DNA of 64,000 bases from Escherichia coli (GTDB lineage: Bacteria; Pseudomonadota; Gammaproteobacteria; Enterobacterales; Enterobacteriaceae): assembly GCF_003018255.1 (NCBI RefSeq), contig NZ_CP027440.1, one strand, 5' to 3'. The translations under genes were made by a program, and so were the position numbers. Below the pieces are notes generated by a model, which was not told the DNA's origin, ran no database searches, and worked only from the letters and a program-made list of their open reading frames with translations. Positions 30,887 to 58,909 of the stretch are shown here, in pieces; the first letter of the stretch is position 1; each line of letters begins with the position of its first letter.

Positions 30887-30997
30887 TTAAATGTCGCGAT
30901 AACGATCACAAAAACGACAATATGAAAATCAATCCAGGAATGAAAGGCAAAAAAAACGGCCTCCCGGGGGAAGCCGTAACAAAGTACGCGTGGTTTT

Positions 30998-32369: not shown

Positions 32370-33647
32370 ATGAAAACAACAGCAAAGCTGTCGTTCATGA
32401 TGTTTGTTGAATGGTTTATCTGGGGCGCGTGGTTTGTGCCATTGTGGTTGTGGTTAAGTAAAAGCGGTTTTAGTGCCGGAGAAATTGGCTGGTCGTATGC
32501 CTGTACCGCCATTGCGGCGATCCTGTCGCCAATTCTGGTTGGCTCCATCACTGACCGCTTTTTCTCGGCGCAGAAAGTGCTGGCGGTATTGATGTTCGCT
32601 GGTGCGGCGCTGATGTATTTCGCTGCGCAACAGACCACTTTTGCCGGGTTCTTCCCGTTACTGCTGGCCTACTCGCTAACCTATATGCCGACCATTGCGC
32701 TGACTAACAGTATCGCTTTTGCCAACGTGCCGGATGTGGAGCGTGATTTCCCACGCATTCGTGTGATGGGCACTATCGGCTGGATTGCCTCCGGTCTGGC
32801 ATGTGGATTTTTGCCGCAAATGCTGGGTTATGCCGATATCTCTCCGACTAACATCCCGCTGCTGATTACCGCCGGAAGTTCTGCTCTGCTCGGTGTGTTT
32901 GCGTTTTTCCTGCCCGACACGCCGCCAAAAAGCACCGGCAAAATGGACATTAAAGTCATGCTCGGCCTGGATGCGCTGATCCTGCTGCGCGATAAAAACT
33001 TCCTCGTCTTTTTCTTCTGTTCATTCCTGTTTGCGATGCCACTGGCGTTCTATTACATCTTTGCCAACGGTTATCTGACAGAAGTCGGCATGAAAAACGC
33101 CACCGGCTGGATGACGCTCGGCCAGTTCTCTGAAATCTTCTTTATGCTGGCATTGCCGTTTTTCACTAAACGCTTTGGTATCAAAAAGGTATTGTTGCTT
33201 GGTCTGGTCACCGCTGCGATCCGCTATGGCTTCTTTATTTACGGTAGTGCGGATGAATATTTCACCTACGCGTTACTGTTCCTCGGCATTTTGCTGCACG
33301 GCGTCAGTTACGATTTTTACTACGTTACCGCTTACATCTATGTCGATAAAAAAGCCCCCGTGCATATGCGTACCGCCGCGCAGGGGCTGATCACGCTCTG
33401 CTGCCAGGGCTTCGGCAGTTTGCTCGGCTATCGTCTTGGCGGTGTGATGATGGAAAAGATGTTCGCTTATCAGGAACCGGTAAACGGACTGACTTTCAAC
33501 TGGTCCGGGATGTGGACTTTCGGCGCGGTGATGATTGCCATTATCGCCGTGCTGTTCATGATTTTTTTCCGCGAATCCGACAACGAAATTACGGCTATCA
33601 AGGTCGATGATCGCGATATTGCGTTGACACAAGGGGAAGTTAAATGA
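32370..33647 (+). CDS. yegT: Nucleoside-permease-like MFS transporter YegT
   Basis: 425 aa, 12 hydrophobic segments, NupG/XapB-like. Confidence 0.8.
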   Translation: MKTTAKLSFMMFVEWFIWGAWFVPLWLWLSKSGFSAGEIGWSYACTAIAAILSPILVGSITDRFFSAQKVLAVLMFAGAALMYFAAQQTTFAGFFPLLLAYSLTYMPTIALTNSIAFANVPDVERDFPRIRVMGTIGWIASGLACGFLPQMLGYADISPTNIPLLITAGSSALLGVFAFFLPDTPPKSTGKMDIKVMLGLDALILLRDKNFLVFFFCSFLFAMPLAFYYIFANGYLTEVGMKNATGWMTLGQFSEIFFMLALPFFTKRFGIKKVLLLGLVTAAIRYGFFIYGSADEYFTYALLFLGILLHGVSYDFYYVTAYIYVDKKAPVHMRTAAQGLITLCCQGFGSLLGYRLGGVMMEKMFAYQEPVNGLTFNWSGMWTFGAVMIAIIAVLFMIFFRESDNEITAIKVDDRDIALTQGEVK

Positions 33648-40847: not shown

Positions 40848-40873
40848 AAAAAAGCCCCCTCGGAGAGAGGGGG
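40845..40873 (-). terminator. Rho-independent terminator downstream of yehA
   Basis: GC hairpin gccccctcggagagagggggg with adjacent A run on the plus strand (U tract on the minus strand). Confidence 0.6.
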
Positions 40874-40928: not shown

Positions 40929-41963
40929 TTAGTCGTATTTCACGTTGATTAATGCGGTTGCCTCCAGTGCGCCAGATTTAACTTTGTTTGTATCGTAGAC
41001 GTAGTAACTGGCCGTTATCGGAATTGAAACCGTTGTATCTGTAAGTTTTGACTTTGCCGCAATTTCTTTTAAATTTGTATATCCTTTACTGCTGTTAGTG
41101 ATATTTAAAAGTGTGACTGGCGTACCATTACTTTCAAGAATAAATCCTACGCCATTATCTTCCGCACCTTTCAGGATCGTGTTGCTGTTGGTTAACAAGT
41201 CAGAACTTGATAAATACACCTGCATTTTCCGTGATGTTTGATTTTGTTGACCTAATAAATTTTTACAACGCAGAATAATATCCCCTTTTTTACTATTTAT
41301 TGTTGTTTTGTTACCTGTGGCTGGTAATTGTGAAACGGGAATACTCTCTAACGTAATTAATAAATCGTCCGGTTTGCAGGTTGTGGTTATCGGGTTGTAT
41401 GACAATGTCAGATTAAAGGAATAGACACCTGCATTTTGTGCCAATGCATTTCTGTAGCTATTTACACATGCATCCCATGACTTACCACCTAATAAACACA
41501 GTAGAAATTGTACTGCGGCACTCCCGCGTGTCGATGATGAAGCACTGGATAATGTCGCAACTCCATTAATCATCACTGAACCACCGCCCCCCGCAGAAAC
41601 ATTCACTTTTGCATTACTGGCCGCAGGTGTCACCGTCACCGAATAACCACTGGTGAAACTGGTCTGATTATTTGACAACGTAATGTTGTTTTTATTGGTC
41701 CATTCAAAATGTAAATTTAATTTAATGGTATCGTTATAAAGTCCAACAATAATATCCGACGGGCTCATAGGTGTGATAGTATTTGTACTCACGCATGACG
41801 AATCATTAAAATTATGCTCATATGTCGCCATTTGTGTTTGAGTAAGTGCAAAATCCCCCTGAACAACCAAATTGTGCTGAACAGATAACTCACTATAACA
41901 TGCCGCATAGCTCACAGGCATAACCATCATCATTACTATAAATAGCATTATGCGAATTTCCAT
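40929..41963 (-). CDS. yehA: Fimbrial adhesin-like protein YehA
   Basis: 344 aa, signal peptide, Thr/Ser-rich; last gene of chaperone-usher operon. Confidence 0.8.
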   Translation of the reverse strand: MEIRIMLFIVMMMVMPVSYAACYSELSVQHNLVVQGDFALTQTQMATYEHNFNDSSCVSTNTITPMSPSDIIVGLYNDTIKLNLHFEWTNKNNITLSNNQTSFTSGYSVTVTPAASNAKVNVSAGGGGSVMINGVATLSSASSSTRGSAAVQFLLCLLGGKSWDACVNSYRNALAQNAGVYSFNLTLSYNPITTTCKPDDLLITLESIPVSQLPATGNKTTINSKKGDIILRCKNLLGQQNQTSRKMQVYLSSSDLLTNSNTILKGAEDNGVGFILESNGTPVTLLNITNSSKGYTNLKEIAAKSKLTDTTVSIPITASYYVYDTNKVKSGALEATALINVKYD

Positions 41964-41978
41964 AGAACCACCTGACTA

Positions 41979-44474
41979 TTACTGGCAAATATAATTTCTA
42001 CTTTCATCAATCTCTTTACCGAAGGTGATTGTGCATGAAAGCCCTTGTTGCTTATCAATTGCCACATTAACCGATGGCGGTACTTCATTGGTGCGAATAA
42101 ATAACTGGCTTCCCTGGCCGACAACACCAATATTATGACCATGGATATCATTGACTTCATAACCAAACGTTAATGGTTGCCCATCCGCTCTTAACGCTTT
42201 TATAAACCATGGCTTGCGCTGATCGGTATCAAAATTAACCAGTACAACCGCGCCGCGATAAGGGGCGGCAATTTTCCGGTTGCCACGTAATTCTGCTTCG
42301 CTATCGCTTTGTGACACATCCAACATCAGGTAATTTTCCCGATAAGGTGTCATTCCGTCGTATACCACCACTCCATTACGGTTTGTTGTGCGATATTTTT
42401 GCCCATTGACATAAGCATCTTTAATTCCTGGCGCATTCATCACAGCAAACGTTTCAGAAAGACGGTTTGCCAGATTAACGCCACCCGACCAGGCGACAAT
42501 GCCCCCTGAAACACTGGCTCCAGCCTGTCGATAAGCACTCGACTGACTATAACTGCCATTCACTGTCGCAACCGGCGCGTTCCAGGTTAAATTCGCCCCA
42601 GCTGTCGTTTCATTTCCCTGATACTGATAACTCAGGTTGACCCCATAGTTAAACTGATCCCGGCTTCCAACGGTTCCTGATAATCCCGTATTATTTGAGG
42701 CAACCCCCTGATCATCAAACGTCGTTGAGTTAGACATATATATTTGCCGACGAGGCGTCGTAACGTCATCACCCCAATCAAAGGGAATCGATATAAAAAT
42801 ATTAAAACGTTTCTCTTCATGATGATTCTCGTCATAAGCATGGCTTGCCGCGAGGGTATAGCTTATCCTTCGCAGGTTGTTGGAATAACTCAACTGATAA
42901 TCCTTACTGCTGCCGCTACGCCCCCAGTAATCTCGCCATAACGTACTTAAGGACACAGAACCCCAGCCTTCTGGCAATGACTGACTCATATTGGCAGAGA
43001 AGCTATTTTTACGGCCAAAATCGTTCTGGTAATAATCGGCAATGTCATAGATATCGTTTTCATCACGGCGATAATTATCTTTATTGTTTGCCCATACGTG
43101 ATCATTAAATGTCCGATAATCACGCGACGAATAACGCCAGGCCGCCAGACCAAAACGTGTCGACGTTTGGCTCACAAATTTGTTGTAGGCAATTTGATAA
43201 CTTTGCCCGTCAAACACATCGCCGTTGTCTTGTTTACTATGCGACTTCGTGGCATCGACGGAAATGGCACCAATGCGTGTATTCCAGCCAGTCCCCAAAG
43301 TGAACGCGTAATAATTATTCGCGACCATCGAGCCACCATACAGCGTTAATAAGTTATTAAAACCATACTGATGACCCGCCTGGACAAAATCACTTTGTTT
43401 GCTCGCCCCTTCAATATGGCTACGACCCGCCGCAAAATCATATTTCGACACGCCGGGTTGCAGCATATTTGGTACCGCTGCATAAGGCACCAGATAGGTG
43501 GTTACCGAACCGTCCGCCTCTTTCACGCTGACATCAAGATCTGCTCCACCTCCGGCCAACTGCAAATCTGTAATCGCAAACGGGCCAGGAGGAACCTCTT
43601 TCTGATAAACCACAAAACCATTCTGTTCAATAGTTACCAGCGCGTTACTCTGAGCAATCCCCTGCACCCGTGGCGTAAAATTTTGTTTCGAGTTAGGCAA
43701 CATCTGCATATCACGAAACAACCGCACACCGCTGAAGCGAACAGAATCAAAAATATCGCTTGATGTGTACATATCACCCACACGAAGCGTGCCGAGAAGT
43801 TGGGCAAATCCACGTTCCAGATACAGGGTATTGCTTTTCCACACCCCTGGATTGTTATTTGTTTTACTGAAACTGGCATCAGAATGCAGTTGCCACCCCT
43901 GTAAATTTAACCCGCTGTTAAAACGTACATATGTACTCTTGCTATTACCCGACGCTTTATAGTCGCTGTAATACTGACTCACATAATAAGAGGTATAAAA
44001 CGCATTAATACCCCGCTCCCAGTTTTCCGGTGGAACATAGCCACTTTCCAGTTCTTCCACCCACGCCTGCGGGACACTGAAATCGAGACGAAAAACTCCG
44101 ATATCCCAGGTATAGCTCCCACCCTGAACAAGTTGCTCAAATGTTAAACATTGCTTACCGCTGGCAAAGTTATCGGTATTAATGCCTAACCGCTTGATAA
44201 TTTCCCTTGATAAACATGTTTCTTGCGGGTTGTCTTTAACAATAATCTCATATTTCCCGCGCCATTGCTTATTGACATAAATATCGATGTCATACTGCCC
44301 CGGCAAGGGTTGATTATCATCAAGACGAATATTTGCAACCTGCTGGTCTTTCATTCCACCTATCATGAAATGGGTATCAAAGGTTTCTTCAGCTGCATAA
44401 GCTTCAATGCCGAGCAATAACGCTACGATTGCTGATGCAAGTGGGGTCATTCTCAACATAGGCAGCTCCTGCAA
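41979..44474 (-). CDS. yehB: Fimbrial outer-membrane usher YehB
   Basis: 831 aa ORF, signal peptide, usher-family architecture (true start may be a downstream in-frame ATG). Confidence 0.85.
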   Translation of the reverse strand: MQELPMLRMTPLASAIVALLLGIEAYAAEETFDTHFMIGGMKDQQVANIRLDDNQPLPGQYDIDIYVNKQWRGKYEIIVKDNPQETCLSREIIKRLGINTDNFASGKQCLTFEQLVQGGSYTWDIGVFRLDFSVPQAWVEELESGYVPPENWERGINAFYTSYYVSQYYSDYKASGNSKSTYVRFNSGLNLQGWQLHSDASFSKTNNNPGVWKSNTLYLERGFAQLLGTLRVGDMYTSSDIFDSVRFSGVRLFRDMQMLPNSKQNFTPRVQGIAQSNALVTIEQNGFVVYQKEVPPGPFAITDLQLAGGGADLDVSVKEADGSVTTYLVPYAAVPNMLQPGVSKYDFAAGRSHIEGASKQSDFVQAGHQYGFNNLLTLYGGSMVANNYYAFTLGTGWNTRIGAISVDATKSHSKQDNGDVFDGQSYQIAYNKFVSQTSTRFGLAAWRYSSRDYRTFNDHVWANNKDNYRRDENDIYDIADYYQNDFGRKNSFSANMSQSLPEGWGSVSLSTLWRDYWGRSGSSKDYQLSYSNNLRRISYTLAASHAYDENHHEEKRFNIFISIPFDWGDDVTTPRRQIYMSNSTTFDDQGVASNNTGLSGTVGSRDQFNYGVNLSYQYQGNETTAGANLTWNAPVATVNGSYSQSSAYRQAGASVSGGIVAWSGGVNLANRLSETFAVMNAPGIKDAYVNGQKYRTTNRNGVVVYDGMTPYRENYLMLDVSQSDSEAELRGNRKIAAPYRGAVVLVNFDTDQRKPWFIKALRADGQPLTFGYEVNDIHGHNIGVVGQGSQLFIRTNEVPPSVNVAIDKQQGLSCTITFGKEIDESRNYICQ

Positions 44475-45149
44475 TTAAATTTTGTCACTAATATAGTTGC
44501 CATGGTCATCGATAATGGTCAGATGCCAGTTATTCGCATTATTACTTTTGACATTAATACTCTGACTTTCTAAGGGGGCAATCATAATAGTTTCATAATT
44601 GACTTTGACATTATTAGCTTTGACATCCGAAATCGTTACCCAATTTTCTGAGTCATTTTTTATCACCAATCCATTGCCACTGCGATTTACCAGTAACTTT
44701 TTAAATGTCGCTTTATTTACCGGAGCAATACCCGCTGGCCGGTAAAACAACTTAATTCTGTTTTGCATCGCAAACTTCAGTGCATTCTTACCTTCTTGTT
44801 CTGGACTATTTGGTGGAATATCCAGAACATTCAGATAAAAAATACTCTCTTTATTAGTGGGTAGTTTATTCGGCATAATTTTAATTTTTACTTGCTGCCC
44901 GGAATTTGCCCCTATTTTTGCCACTGGTGGCGTTAACATGAAAGGAACCTGAATTTTTTCTGGTGGTAATGACGTATCGCCATCATCAATCCACGCCTGC
45001 AGCAGCGAAGAACGGTTTCCCTGGTTCATCAACTGCACCATCACTTCTTTATTTTCTGCCGGGTAAATAATGCGCGTCCCGTAGATAACAATACCGGCAT
45101 GTGCAGGAAGGACCATAGAAGAAATGAGTAAAGCTAATAATCCTTTCAT
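44475..45149 (-). CDS. yehC: Periplasmic fimbrial chaperone YehC
   Basis: 224 aa, signal peptide (MKGLLALLISSMVLPAHA), PapD-like chaperone. Confidence 0.8.
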   Translation of the reverse strand: MKGLLALLISSMVLPAHAGIVIYGTRIIYPAENKEVMVQLMNQGNRSSLLQAWIDDGDTSLPPEKIQVPFMLTPPVAKIGANSGQQVKIKIMPNKLPTNKESIFYLNVLDIPPNSPEQEGKNALKFAMQNRIKLFYRPAGIAPVNKATFKKLLVNRSGNGLVIKNDSENWVTISDVKANNVKVNYETIMIAPLESQSINVKSNNANNWHLTIIDDHGNYISDKI

Positions 45150-45157
45150 CTTAATGC

Positions 45158-45193
45158 CTCTTAAATTAAAAGGCCGCCATGGGGATAGCGGCC
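45158..45193 (-). terminator. Intra-operon rho-independent terminator/attenuator between yehD and yehC
   Basis: Hairpin ggccgccatggggatagcggcc; on the minus strand it is followed by TTTTAATTT. Confidence 0.55.
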
Positions 45194-45229
45194 ATGTTTA
45201 TTACCTGGAGAAACTTGCAATTTTATTTA

Positions 45230-45772
45230 TTAATCCTGCGCCACACGCATAACCAGAGAAGATAACACATCACCTGATTGCACTGAATTATCTGTCAGCT
45301 TCAGGTATTTTGCTTTAAACGGAATAGCATATTGACCTTCCGCTGTTTTATAACTCTCAATGTTAAAAGGTGCAGAAATATCCAGGACATCACTGTTATC
45401 ACCTAAATAGAGATAGTAACCCACGGTATCGTTGCTACTGGCTATCGCCTTATCGTTGCCGGTTATTTTGTCGTTTGTGATCAACGAGAGTTTTACACCA
45501 GCAACTTCTTTCGGGCAGCTAATTTTTAACATGCTGCTGGTTACACCGACTGCATCATCATAGGTAGAATATTTAGCTTTACCTTCAAAGACAGTGGTTG
45601 GTACAGTTGGCATATTAATACTTACTGAATCGCCACCTGCTTCGAATTTACACGGAGATTCTGCAATATTCCCTTTAATGGTTAATGTTCCGGTATCAAC
45701 GTCTGCGGCAAATACCCCAGCGCTCATAAAAAAAGAAGAAAAAACAGCGGCAGCAATAATTGAACGTTTCAT
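45230..45772 (-). CDS. yehD: Major fimbrial subunit-like protein YehD
   Basis: 180 aa, signal peptide, fimbrial-subunit-like C-terminus. Confidence 0.8.
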   Translation of the reverse strand: MKRSIIAAAVFSSFFMSAGVFAADVDTGTLTIKGNIAESPCKFEAGGDSVSINMPTVPTTVFEGKAKYSTYDDAVGVTSSMLKISCPKEVAGVKLSLITNDKITGNDKAIASSNDTVGYYLYLGDNSDVLDISAPFNIESYKTAEGQYAIPFKAKYLKLTDNSVQSGDVLSSLVMRVAQD

Positions 45773-46001
45773 AATATGCTCCTTAATAAAATCTATTTTT
45801 GGTTGTTAAGAGTCTGTATCTCTTGGAAACAAATTTCTCACACCCAAAAAGTTGCCGCAATGTAAACACATTGTTTTATTGATTTAAAGCAAATTAACCA
45901 TTGCAATATAAACACAACAAATACTTAAACGCATTAAATATTTATCAAATCTATTAATTAATGTAGATTTCTATAAATGGTATTATTAATATCAATAAAA
46001 A

Positions 46002-46040
46002 AGCTTAAATCATTCATGTGAATGATTTAAGCTTTCTAAA
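46002..46040 (-). terminator. Rho-independent terminator downstream of yehE
   Basis: Perfect 15 bp inverted repeat agcttaaatcattca/tgaatgatttaagct with 2 bp spacer; U tract on the minus strand. Confidence 0.55.
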
Positions 46041-46064
46041 TCCGATTAAAACCAGGGTGGCAAA

Positions 46065-46346
46065 TTAATCGTAGCGATTTAACACGATTCGACGTTTGCT
46101 ATCGCTATCTGCAGCAATCACTTCCGTCGTTACACCTTTAACTGGCGAAGAAACCTGATGACGGGTATCAACATTATACGTTAACTGACCACAATGCTGT
46201 TGAGGTTGACCATTAACCATAGCCATACTGCATGTCGGGGGACTGATCCTACCATTAATCGTTAATGTGGCAGTTTCTGAAGAGAACGCGGGAGAGGCCA
46301 ATCCATAGGCAAGAAAAATAATTCCTGACAGCCAATACTTATTCAT
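46065..46346 (-). CDS. yehE: Small secreted protein YehE
   Basis: 93 aa with signal peptide. Confidence 0.7.
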   Translation of the reverse strand: MNKYWLSGIIFLAYGLASPAFSSETATLTINGRISPPTCSMAMVNGQPQQHCGQLTYNVDTRHQVSSPVKGVTTEVIAADSDSKRRIVLNRYD

Positions 46347-46608
46347 TGAACGTTATCCCTGTAGTAAAGGTTATGCCTGGATAGAATGAGTGCATAACAA
46401 ACTATAGCTGTACATCCACTACACAGCCACGAAGGATGATAATGAAGCATTGCCTGTACGATCAATCGACTTTGTAGAGTTTCGGACGAAGGTCCGCAGA
46501 ATATTCGCAGCATTAAATAAGTGTTCATTAATGCGGCAAAAACAAATACACCGCATCAATGTAACATCTCTGCGGTGTATGAAGAATAACCAGAATGGTT
46601 AATACGCG

Positions 46609-47718
46609 TTAGACCGCGCGGAAGGAAATCTCGCCTGGAATGACTTCACCCTGCCAGTAAAGCTGAGCTGCAACGCGGTCAGCCAGCTGGCGGTAGATAG
46701 CGGTAAATTCGCTCTCAGGACGGCTGATAACCGTTGGCGTGCCTTTATCGAGATCCTCACGTAAGGAGATGTGTAACGGCATCTGCCCCAGCAGCTGTGT
46801 GTGGTATTTCTCGGCCAGTTTCTCTGCACCACCGGTACCGAAAATCGGTTCATGGTGACCACAGTTACTGCAAATATGCACACTCATGTTCTCGACAATA
46901 CCGAGCACCGGAACCTCGACTTTCTCGAACATCACAATGCCTTTTTTCGCATCGATCAACGCGATGTCCTGCGGGGTGGTGACCACGACTGCACCGGTTA
47001 CTGGAATGTTTTGTGCCAATGTCAATTGAATGTCACCGGTACCTGGCGGCATATCAAGCACCAGATAGTCGAGATCCGGCCACAAGGTTTCCTGCAACAT
47101 TTGCATTAACGCCTTGCTCGCCATTGGGCCACGCCACACCATCGCATTGTCGTCTGTCACCAGATAACCAATTGAATTAGTTGCCAGGCCATGAGACATA
47201 ATCGGTGCCATATGGGTACCGTCCGGCGAAGTTGGACGCTGATTTTCTGCACCCAGCATGTTAGGGATTGATGGGCCGTAGATATCGGCGTCCAGAATGC
47301 CGACTTTCGCCCCTTCCGCCGCCAGTGCCAACGCCAGGTTTACCGCCGTGGAGGATTTACCCACGCCACCTTTACCGGAACTGACCGCGATAATGTTCTT
47401 CACGCCGTTAATTCCCGGCTGATTCTTCACGCGTTTCAGAGTGGCTATGTTATGCGACAGTTTCCAGTCGATAGCTTTCGCTCCGGTGATGCGCAGCAGT
47501 TCGGCGCTACATTGCTCTTTTAACTCTTCGAACGCGCTATGCCAGACGAATGGCATAACCAGTTCCACATGCAGCGTGTCGTCCATCCAGGCGACATGGT
47601 GCAACGCTTTCAGCGTTGTGAGGTTATGCTTCAGGGTTGGGTGCTGAAAATTGGCCAGTGTCCCGGCGACCATTGCGCGCAAGGCTTCTGGTGATTTGGC
47701 CTGGGATTGTTCGTTCAT
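46609..47718 (-). CDS. mrp: Fe-S cluster carrier ATPase Mrp/ApbC
   Basis: ORF 46609..47748; start placed at ATG 47718 (MNEQSQAKSPEAL..., 369 aa); P-loop SGKGGVGKS, CxxC motif. Confidence 0.9.
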   Translation of the reverse strand: MNEQSQAKSPEALRAMVAGTLANFQHPTLKHNLTTLKALHHVAWMDDTLHVELVMPFVWHSAFEELKEQCSAELLRITGAKAIDWKLSHNIATLKRVKNQPGINGVKNIIAVSSGKGGVGKSSTAVNLALALAAEGAKVGILDADIYGPSIPNMLGAENQRPTSPDGTHMAPIMSHGLATNSIGYLVTDDNAMVWRGPMASKALMQMLQETLWPDLDYLVLDMPPGTGDIQLTLAQNIPVTGAVVVTTPQDIALIDAKKGIVMFEKVEVPVLGIVENMSVHICSNCGHHEPIFGTGGAEKLAEKYHTQLLGQMPLHISLREDLDKGTPTVISRPESEFTAIYRQLADRVAAQLYWQGEVIPGEISFRAV

Positions 47719-49893: not shown

Positions 49894-49925
49894 AAGGCGC
49901 TGCATCGACAGCGCCTTTTCTTTAT
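49894..49925 (+). terminator. Rho-independent terminator of metG
   Basis: Hairpin aaggcgctgcatcgacagcgcctt followed by ttctttat. Confidence 0.7.
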
Positions 49926-58217: not shown

Positions 58218-58304
58218 GTTGAGATGCCATGTTGCACTATCAGTAACTTAACATCAAAGTAGTAAATAAAAGAACCTGCCTCACCAGCAGGTTCTTTTAT
58301 TTTC
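58218..58304 (+). ncRNA. orzO: OrzO small RNA antitoxin (approximate ends)
   Basis: Starts about 7 nt after tataat; contains gccatgttgcact complementary to the zorO 5' UTR (plus-strand coordinates about 58060-58073); terminator aaagaacctgcctcaccagcaggttctttt plus T tract. Confidence 0.65.
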
Positions 58305-58825: not shown

Positions 58826-58909
58826 GTTGGTACGAAATGTTGCACAATCAGCAAGTTAGCGTCATTGTAGTAAATAAAAGAACCTGCCTCACCAGCAGGT
58901 TTTTTTATT
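58826..58909 (+). ncRNA. orzP: OrzP small RNA antitoxin (approximate ends)
   Basis: Contains ttggtacgaaatgttgcac, imperfectly matching gttggtacgaaacgttgc in the zorP leader; terminator aaaagaacctgcctcaccagcaggttttttt. Confidence 0.6.

Follow-up and report, generated by a model that had tools for sequence, protein, structure and literature searches.

A conserved stem-loop in the yehD-yehC spacer of the Escherichia coli yeh fimbrial operon, with a terminator-like U-rich tail in K-12-type alleles

For every usher and every tip adhesin, a pilus needs something like a thousand copies of the major subunit. The four yeh genes lie on one transcript, and a hairpin after the pilin gene is a textbook means of skewing such a ratio. 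In E. coli operons with a stabilised 5' gene, 26 of 34 stable segments end just after a stable hairpin that lacks a U-tract, and Salmonella and Enterobacter share these protective hairpins (Dar and Sorek 2018, PMC5927463). In such operons (SRPS, malEFG for example) the stable stem-loop lies just 3' of the cistron whose product is needed in excess, and the yeh hairpin is likewise found at this place. The structure of the protective hairpins is conserved in related species; so is the yeh stem, and most of its versions are free of a U-tract. Many protective hairpins are located inside the downstream ORF, whereas the yehD-yehC hairpin is intergenic.

The pap and CFA/I fimbrial operons are the classical cases of differential stability, according to the citing passages of PMC5927463 and PMC4423207 (Xu et al.). 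In these chaperone-usher operons, papBA/papA (Baga et al. 1988; Bricker and Belasco 1999) and cfaAB (Jordi et al. 1993), the major-pilin mRNA is reported to exceed the rest of the message through RNA processing, combined with a 3' hairpin of the terminator type that resists RNase. For pap, a 5' stem-loop and a cut by RNase E on the upstream side of papA are reported to be needed as well. Unlike papA, yehD is the first gene of its operon and no upstream processing is needed. No sequence relationship exists between pap or cfa and yeh. Leaky intrinsic terminators inside operons have the same GC-rich 9-bp stem, tetraloop and four abutting U on the transcribed strand, with a positive terminator score; yeh differs from them by its interrupted U-tract, its modest score and the absence of the tail in other Escherichia lineages.

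The spacer between fimA and fimI of K-12, which is the same operon position as that of the yeh hairpin, contains the annotated sRNA FimR2 (NC_000913.3). FimR2 is described as regulating fimbriae, flagella and biofilm in stationary phase. The FimR2 region has GGA motifs, and its hairpin is weak (core -7.7 kcal/mol, z about 0), whereas the yeh spacer has no GGA; by inspection, no sequence or motif likeness was found between the two. A search of the open-access literature for a precedent at mrkA gave nothing useful. Since the Yhl pilus (PMC12778044) is often found alongside Yeh in phylogroup E, it is probably a separate locus from the O157-type yeh allele.

The yehDCBA genes are reported to form one cryptic H-NS-repressed operon that is induced 3.6-fold by SlyA overproduction (PMC5797941), and in K-12 the operon sits within a silenced protein-occupancy domain (bioRxiv 10.1101/2024.06.20.599902). 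Both reports agree with the H-NS silencing proposed in the original prediction. According to PMC5797941, which cites Korea et al. 2010, the yeh operon gives functional fimbriae when a single constitutive promoter drives it from upstream. No entry for yehD, yehC or yehE is listed among the E. coli 3' ends of Adams et al. 2021 (PMC7815308), which fits a silent operon; H-NS silencing in laboratory strains, K-12 included, explains the absence. A full-text search for 'yehD' together with 'terminator' returned nothing relevant, and a literature search for a per-gene expression step between yehD and yehC gave operon-level or single-gene statements only. A paper on RNA-switch prediction flags the yehD leader, not the yehD-yehC junction. 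The yehD-yehC hairpin is newly described and unannotated, while hairpins 3' of pilin genes are already well known.

The features of the locus within the window, which is the whole 64-kb stretch of DNA analysed, are collected in Table 1. The gene identities given earlier were borne out by Pfam and RefSeq, which agree on a YehD subunit, a PapD-type chaperone YehC, a YehB usher and a two-domain pilin-like YehA; NC_000913.3 labels yehA 'putative fimbrial adhesin YehA'.

Table 1. Coordinates of the yeh genes and of the RNA features discussed in the text (positions of the window)
Feature	Position	Strand	Remarks
yehD, major fimbrial subunit, 180 aa	45230..45772	-	Pfam Fimbrial PF00419 E 1.7e-7; RefSeq 'yehD: fimbrial protein'
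A/U-rich 36-nt spacer, yehD stop to hairpin	45194..45229	-	single-stranded in consensus fold, no conserved pairing
5' arm GGCCGCUAU	45185..45193	-	pairs with 45180-45172; pair conservation and compensatory changes
Loop CCCC	45181..45184	-	CCC in K-12; CUCC/C-rich in other E. coli; AUUC in O157-type
3' arm AUGGCGGCC	45172..45180	-	pairs with 5' arm; conserved pairing
U-rich tail UUUUAAUUU	45163..45171	-	7/9 U, run broken by AA; K-12-type alleles only
Shine-Dalgarno AAGAGG of yehC	45157..45162	-	7 nt before ATG
yehC, periplasmic chaperone, 224 aa	44475..45149	-	Pfam PapD_N E 1.7e-41, PapD_C
yehB, outer-membrane usher	41979..44459	-	Pfam Usher E 4e-194, PapC_N, PapC_C; RefSeq of homologous loci
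yehA, two-domain subunit of the tip-adhesin type, 344 aa; final operon gene	40929..41963	-	Pfam Fimbrial, residues 184-344 only
Terminator-like hairpin CCCCCUCUCUCCGAGGGGG, then C, U8	40855..40873	-	55 nt past yehA stop; d +7.1; probable operon-end terminator of yehDCBA
AT-rich yehE-yehD intergenic region, yehD promoter region	45773..46064	.	26% GC; lowest-GC 292-nt stretch of the window

The hairpin is located on the minus (coding) strand at 45193-45172 and consists of a 9-bp stem closed by the CCCC loop. The plus-strand string that the original prediction quoted is the exact reverse complement of 45193..45172, and its range of 45158-45193 covers the hairpin with its tail and the greater part of the Shine-Dalgarno sequence. 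It had placed the hairpin 37 bp downstream of the yehD stop codon (45232..45230), which is right within one base, 36 nt being measured. On the coding strand the order is UAA, 36 nt of A/U-rich sequence, GGCCGCUAU, CCCC, AUGGCGGCC, UUUUAAUUUA, AGAGG, CAUUAAG and AUG, where the 10-nt tail UUUUAAUUUA corresponds to 45171..45162 and lies directly 3' of the stem. The nine pairs are six G-C, at the base, one U.G and two A-U, and the loop is 4 nt. In the window allele four consecutive U abut the stem base. The yehC Shine-Dalgarno sequence is 10 nt from the stem, and the yehC ATG is 22 nt from the hairpin base.

The 32-nt element folds with a free energy of -15.7 kcal/mol, against -7.1 +/- 2.3 in dinucleotide shuffles (z -3.8; none of 200 shuffles as good), in a spacer of 39% GC overall. 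The opposite strand folds less well, at -11.8 versus -15.7 kcal/mol for the sense strand, and the U.G pair becomes a C/A mismatch there. Loop length is commonly polymorphic: the 4-nt version matches 2352 genomes and the 3-nt version 2017.

The whole window was scanned on both strands with the d'Aubenton-Carafa discriminant d, which combines a stem energy per length with a weighted U-tract score; d was computed with ViennaRNA energies, while the original used 1990 parameters, and the zero threshold is therefore approximate. A value of d of at least 13 was found at seven sites of the 64-kb window, both strands counted, among them the yehD-yehC hairpin and the yehE terminator; local dinucleotide shuffles gave a mean of 0.44 such sites. 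The chance of a match on the coding strand within the 80-nt yehD-yehC spacer is about 3e-4. A looser terminator pattern was not enriched in the region (8 found, 7.1 expected). The hairpin sequence is single-copy in the window when up to three mismatches are allowed, and it occurs at a median of one place per E. coli genome. A repetitive extragenic palindrome of the REP/BIME type was considered and rejected, as it requires many dispersed copies and the hairpin is single-copy in the window and in the genomes. An Rfam search of positions 44000-47000 at E <= 10 returned three chance-level matches only, and no known RNA family for the hairpin.

Of 5426 complete E. coli genomes, 5283 carry the yeh locus, which falls into several allele classes. 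Ten Escherichia sequences were aligned: the window, K-12, a strain of the 95.5% class, two further E. coli, an O157:H7 strain (80% class), Escherichia sp. E1V33, E. whittamii, Escherichia sp. MOD1-EC7003 and E. albertii. RNAalifold returned exactly the 9-bp helix and no other. On a helix extended to 11 pairs, 95% of the pair cells were paired, against 14-63% when the 3' partners were slid. At pair 2 eight sequences have G-C, and the other two, E. whittamii and E. albertii, have A-U through a change on each side; pair 5 goes from G-C to A-U, again on both sides, in Escherichia sp. MOD1-EC7003 alone; pair 7 switches between U.G and C-G. Beyond the two core pairs, a third pair of the 11-pair extended helix also changes on both sides. 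When alignment columns were shuffled, 1 of 500 shuffles equalled the three two-sided pairs and none of 500 equalled the observed covariation score. In the non-K-12-type sequences the helix is extended to 10-11 bp, with -17 to -19 kcal/mol.

Comparison of the window with the O157 allele showed that 17 of 18 stem positions are kept, against 27 of 51 in the rest of the spacer (Fisher p = 0.001); in the 36 nt upstream of the stem about half of the positions are common to the two allele types. The stem is under purifying selection with compensatory substitutions. Compensatory changes would also keep a DNA palindrome, and the U.G asymmetry alone tells an RNA helix from a palindrome. The compensatory changes, the stronger conservation of the stem than of the rest of the spacer and the sense bias of the U.G pair together indicate that the stem is selected, most simply as RNA of the yeh transcript. 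The hairpin is a genuine element under selection, placed on the coding strand after the gene for the major subunit and before that for the chaperone.

The tail behaves differently from the stem. The window allele has d +13.5 with nT 3.67, a positive but modest value, and K-12 has +14.7; other K-12-type alleles reach +16.3 (L006) and +2.6. In O157-type E. coli, E. albertii, E. whittamii and two Escherichia spp. the stem is kept and the U-tract is absent (d about -37 to -44), and the tail of these five non-K-12-type alleles is AGCAUAAAUAU or AUAUGAAUAC in place of UUUUAAUUU. A junction at least 95% identical to that of the window is present in about 4900 of 5426 E. coli genomes, and the near-invariance of the tail among these K-12-type alleles may merely reflect the low diversity of the class. 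The O157-type junction is at least 99% identical, essentially invariant, in 368 E. coli genomes. Thus the U-tract accompanies a homologous stem in about 90% of E. coli genomes and is absent in about 7% (O157-type).

Judged as an intrinsic terminator, the element has a stem-loop (9 bp, loop of 4 nt) and a U-rich tract of about 7-9 nt, and the allele type of the window scores as a modest intrinsic terminator. The terminator signature is not retained at these orthologous sites, and in the wider family d exceeds 0 at only 12 of 35 loci. The terminator reading of the original prediction is only partly supported: it suits the window allele, with its stem, U-rich tail and d of +13.5, and does not extend to the O157-type and sister-species alleles, from which the U-tract is absent. 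Conservation thus concerns the stem and not the terminator. With an interrupted U-tract and a modest score, termination at the hairpin could be negligible.

A scan for YehC in one genome per species gave 80 loci, and statistics were made on the 35 with a YehD homologue encoded upstream. In all 35, which come from other species, the spacer between the pilin and chaperone genes harbours a hairpin of dG <= -12 (median -16.9), a count that overstates independence since near-duplicates are included (L024/L025, L014/L015 and L011/L033, for example). Of same-length coding windows of the same loci, 12% reach dG <= -12 (median -7.2; Mann-Whitney p = 3e-19). A positive d was found in 12 of the 35 loci versus 0 of 140 control windows, and the other 23 have no terminator-grade tail. 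The stem sequences are unrelated between genera, so the hairpin is maintained by turnover and not by descent alone. Among the loci scanned outside this set, 34 of 45 upstream ORFs of L038-L085 are Pfam fimbrial proteins. Most of loci L041-L085 have strong hairpins; these were left out of the statistics, being from high-GC genomes without a GC-matched control.

Eight of ten K-12 chaperone-usher operons have a hairpin 3' of the first pilin gene: elfA (-17.9 kcal/mol), yraH (-23), yfcV (-16.2), ygiL (-16.1), ecpA (-14.4), yehD (-14.1), ybgD (-11.9) and yadN (a 13-bp stem). No hairpin of note was found 3' of the pilin gene in fimA and sfmA of K-12. Only yraH, yehD and ecpA score as terminator-like (d > 0; 3 of 10). 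The arrangement that had been called common for chaperone-usher operons is therefore common as a hairpin (35 of 35 Yeh-family loci, 8 of 10 K-12 operons), and in only about a third of cases does it look like a terminator (12 of 35 and 3 of 10). As about a third of the family hairpins are terminator-like, this suggests stabilisation as the common denominator of chaperone-usher operons.

Compared with the protective SRPS hairpins, yeh has a stable hairpin right after the cistron and a structure that is conserved across species with covariation. The U-tract-free state by which PMC5927463 defined the class applies to 23 of 35 family loci and to the O157-type allele, not to the window allele. Hairpins of this kind, which stabilise the cistron before them, are documented in E. 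coli (PMC5927463), and stabilisation fits the data better as the conserved function. We consider it probable, on these comparisons, that the stem-loop closing the major-pilin cistron on its 3' side raises the yehD message over that of the chaperone, usher and adhesin. Its conserved job is probably that of a 3' barrier stabilising the pilin mRNA, to which leaky termination would have been added in this lineage. Family-wide, the stem would block 3'-to-5' exonucleases; after a downstream cut in the yehDCBA transcript, or if the transcript stops there, its yehD part would survive and the rest would decay (differential decay, SRPS). In the K-12-type allele, where the stem is followed by UUUUAAUUU, a fraction of RNA polymerases may terminate 7-9 nt past the stem, near 45165-45163, and the remaining polymerases would read through into yehC. 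No promoter-like site for yehCBA was found in the yehD-yehC spacer and the operon works from one upstream promoter, so any termination must be incomplete. The analysis shows that the hairpin exists, is improbable by chance, is under selection and recurs at this operon position; that it ends or protects transcripts in cells, in whatever proportion, is inferred. The poorly studied Yeh pilus is mainly shown to follow a known fimbrial-operon rule. One homologous stem with and without a U-tract, across E. coli lineages and sister species, is a natural contrast, and alleles of the two kinds would allow termination and stabilisation to be separated at one site.

Two other readings each take one half of this proposal. 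The hairpin may be a leaky intrinsic terminator and nothing else, its U-tract-free versions being decayed or non-functional relics. The GC-rich 9-bp stem, the tetraloop, the 7/9 U and the d of +13.5 of the window allele agree with such a terminator, as do the 12 of 35 family loci and 3 of 10 K-12 operons that score likewise against 0 of 140 controls. Against it, exactly the lineages lacking the U-tract have kept the stem with compensatory changes and even strengthened it to 10-11 bp; the O157-type junction is essentially invariant over 368 genomes, and at 23 of 35 family loci the hairpin is strong although its tail is not of terminator grade. We hold this reading to be unlikely. Conversely, the element may act in 3' stability only, with no useful termination even in the window allele and with the U-rich tail an incidental part of an A/U-rich spacer. 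The U-tract-free hairpin is the conserved state and has a precedent (PMC5927463). The tail is broken after four U, and in a spacer of 39% GC runs of U are unsurprising. The U directly abutting the stem base are the most important part of a terminator U-tract, and four of them abut a GC-rich stem base here, a combination that is rare by chance and makes stability alone rather improbable. Combined stabilisation and leaky termination remains our preferred reading.

A hairpin-bearing yehD 3' fragment might instead accumulate as a small regulatory RNA acting in trans, in the manner of FimR2, which is annotated at the equivalent position of the fim operon. A terminator-type 3' hairpin is the usual scaffold of sRNAs derived from 3' UTRs. 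The yeh spacer has neither a likeness to FimR2 nor a GGA motif nor an Rfam family, and the 36 nt upstream of the stem, which would be the seed region, are poorly conserved between allele types; no yeh-derived RNA is in the 3'-end tables of Adams et al. 2021. An sRNA is thus very unlikely. If true, yeh would be the second fimbrial operon, after fim, with a regulator in the spacer downstream of the pilin gene, and its making or its binding (by Hfq, for example) would change as E. coli lineages gained or lost the U-tract. A role directed at yehC is possible by position for the Escherichia hairpin, given its closeness to the ribosome-binding site; it lies 36-44 nt from the stop codon in Escherichia and within 2-10 nt in most other genera. 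Such a translation-level element might be a coding sequence or mini-ORF, might sequester or expose the ribosome-binding site, or might be a 5' protective stem for yehCBA. The MG1655 record starts yehC at an upstream ATG on the 5' edge of the stem, which in the window opens a 9-codon ORF across the hairpin. This ATG is out of frame in the 4-nt-loop version (2352 genomes), E. whittamii and E. albertii have CTG or TTG in its place, and the compensatory changes of the stem are non-synonymous in its frame; a mini-ORF or alternative yehC start at this ATG was rejected on these grounds. The single-sequence fold of 80 nt pairs GUUUCU with the Shine-Dalgarno region, 10 nt from the stem, but this outer 'anti-Shine-Dalgarno' helix has a z of only -2.0, occurs in that fold alone and is dropped by RNAalifold on the ten sequences, and it was likewise rejected. 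The AGAGG core is invariant 7 nt before the downstream ATG, PapD_N starts at residue 19 of the short form, which leaves a normal signal peptide, and stabilising yehCBA over yehD would invert the stoichiometry that a pilus needs. Taken together, these points make a translation-level element highly improbable. The hairpin could also have no function as RNA, being a chance palindrome, a DNA-level protein-binding site or the remnant of a repetitive element. Compensatory changes keep a DNA palindrome as well, and the region shows no enrichment of the loose terminator pattern; but the shuffle statistics, the single-copy sequence, the U.G pair favouring sense RNA and the recurrence of hairpins of unrelated sequence at the same operon position reduce this to a next to negligible probability.

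The annotated starts of yehC differ: the MG1655 record uses the upstream ATG (720 nt) and PGAP the downstream ATG (675 nt). The Shine-Dalgarno core AGAGG is invariant in 10 of 10 Escherichia sequences, and the first base of the motif is U in one of them. As neither the frame nor the upstream ATG is conserved while AGAGG is invariant, the hairpin is intergenic. The start at 45149, chosen in the original prediction, is supported by these sequence comparisons as better than that of the MG1655 record, and the evidence for the downstream ATG corrects the yehC start in this reference record. The AT-rich region of about 290 bp that had been noted at 45773-46064 was confirmed, with 26.0% GC against a window mean of 50.9%. 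On its far side yehE is located at 46065-46346 on the minus strand, which is also the strand of apbC in the window.

Two annotated starts exist for yehC, and the hairpin between yehD and yehC bears on the choice between them. In the curated MG1655 record (NC_000913.3), yehC is read from an ATG at the 5′ edge of the hairpin, giving a gene of 720 nt and a protein of 239 aa, while PGAP starts from a downstream ATG (675 nt, 224 aa). The loop of the hairpin carries a common 1-nt length polymorphism, CCC in 2017 genomes and CCCC-type in 2352. Because this polymorphism leaves nearly half of E. coli with the upstream ATG in a different frame from yehC, the start given by the MG1655 record is probably wrong. 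As shown in the table, the small regulatory RNA FimR2 of the type 1 fimbrial operon occupies a position equivalent to that of the yehD hairpin. The FimR2 region showed a weak fold only (z about 0), and no terminator-like tail was seen in it.

Terminator-like sites, intergenic features and compared genes of the yeh region, with their counterparts in other loci. Strand and details are given where available; d, d'Aubenton-Carafa terminator discriminant.
Feature	Coordinates	Strand	Details
yehC start region and hairpin	window 45147-45195	-	MG1655 counterpart, locus L095 6927-7646
FimR2, fimA-fimI spacer	MG1655 locus L086 1675-1709 = NC_000913.3 4543674-4543708		from annotation
Palindrome downstream of yehE	window 45998-46037	-	18 bp, A/U-rich, perfect: AGAAAGCUUAAAUCAUUC-ACAU-GAAUGAUUUAAGCUUUUU
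Hairpin CCCCCUCUCUCCGAGGGGG, then C, then U8	window 40855-40873	-	between convergent rcnB (+) and yehA (-)
Other site, d ≥ 13	window 30957-30976	-	discriminant scan
Other site, d ≥ 13	window 33354-33387	-	discriminant scan
Other site, d ≥ 13	window 49896-49915	+	discriminant scan
Other site, d ≥ 13	window 58272-58294	-	discriminant scan
Other site, d ≥ 13	window 58883-58899	+	discriminant scan
RNA-switch candidate, yehD leader	MG1655 2190295-2190394; roughly window 45790-45890		PMC4448311
yehD, compared for DUF2574	window 45233-45772	-	
yehE, compared for DUF2574	window 46068-46346	-	

The yehE palindrome lies 27 nt 3′ of the yehE stop and is followed by U-rich sequence. Its spacer folded at −25.1 kcal/mol (z −6.1), and the discriminant scan of the window gave it a d of +22. 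It is probably the terminator of yehE, setting that gene apart from the yehD promoter region. The hairpin between rcnB and yehA looks like the terminator at the end of the yeh operon. Read on the plus strand, the hairpin has A8 before it but GAAUGCAG after it, and is thus not an obvious bidirectional terminator. The five other sites in the table are all those remaining in the window at the threshold of d ≥ 13.

The yehE-yehD intergenic region (45773-46064) has a GC content of 26.0% and is the lowest 292-nt stretch of the 64 kb (mean 50.9%). A simple sigma-70 scan of its minus strand found no promoter match at 9 of 12 positions. In a 2015 structural-entropy screen (PMC4448311), 100 nt of sequence lying upstream of this operon ranked among the top E. 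coli RNA-switch candidates.

Residues 1-44 of YehD gave a weak match (E-value 8e-4) to DUF2574, the family of YehE, that does not reach the Pfam cut-off. DUF2574 was likewise hit by the upstream ORF of a single distant locus. Signal-peptide similarity may be all that lies behind this. The K-12/RefSeq names used here, yehD for the major subunit and yehA for the adhesin-like protein, are the reverse of those in a 2026 Science Advances paper (PMC12778044), in which the yeh genes were named in transcription order, with yehA the major subunit and yehD the adhesin. Either protein may be meant where a paper cites 'YehD'.

The yeh operon is often damaged, as in loci L001 (3233-3600), L005 (3113-3810) and L002 (2549-3606) from other genomes. 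A K-12 Dam/Dcm strain has ISVsa5 inserted in yehB, strain ET846 has lost the yehD 3′ end and most of yehC, the hairpin included, to an IS1, and yehB of O157:H7 Z1825 has an internal stop. On a contig labelled 'MAG: Flavobacterium psychrophilum' (QFQM01000522.1, locus L018), the pilin-chaperone junction is of the yeh type and almost identical to the one in Citrobacter werkmanii (L016); the contig is probably enterobacterial and mis-binned.
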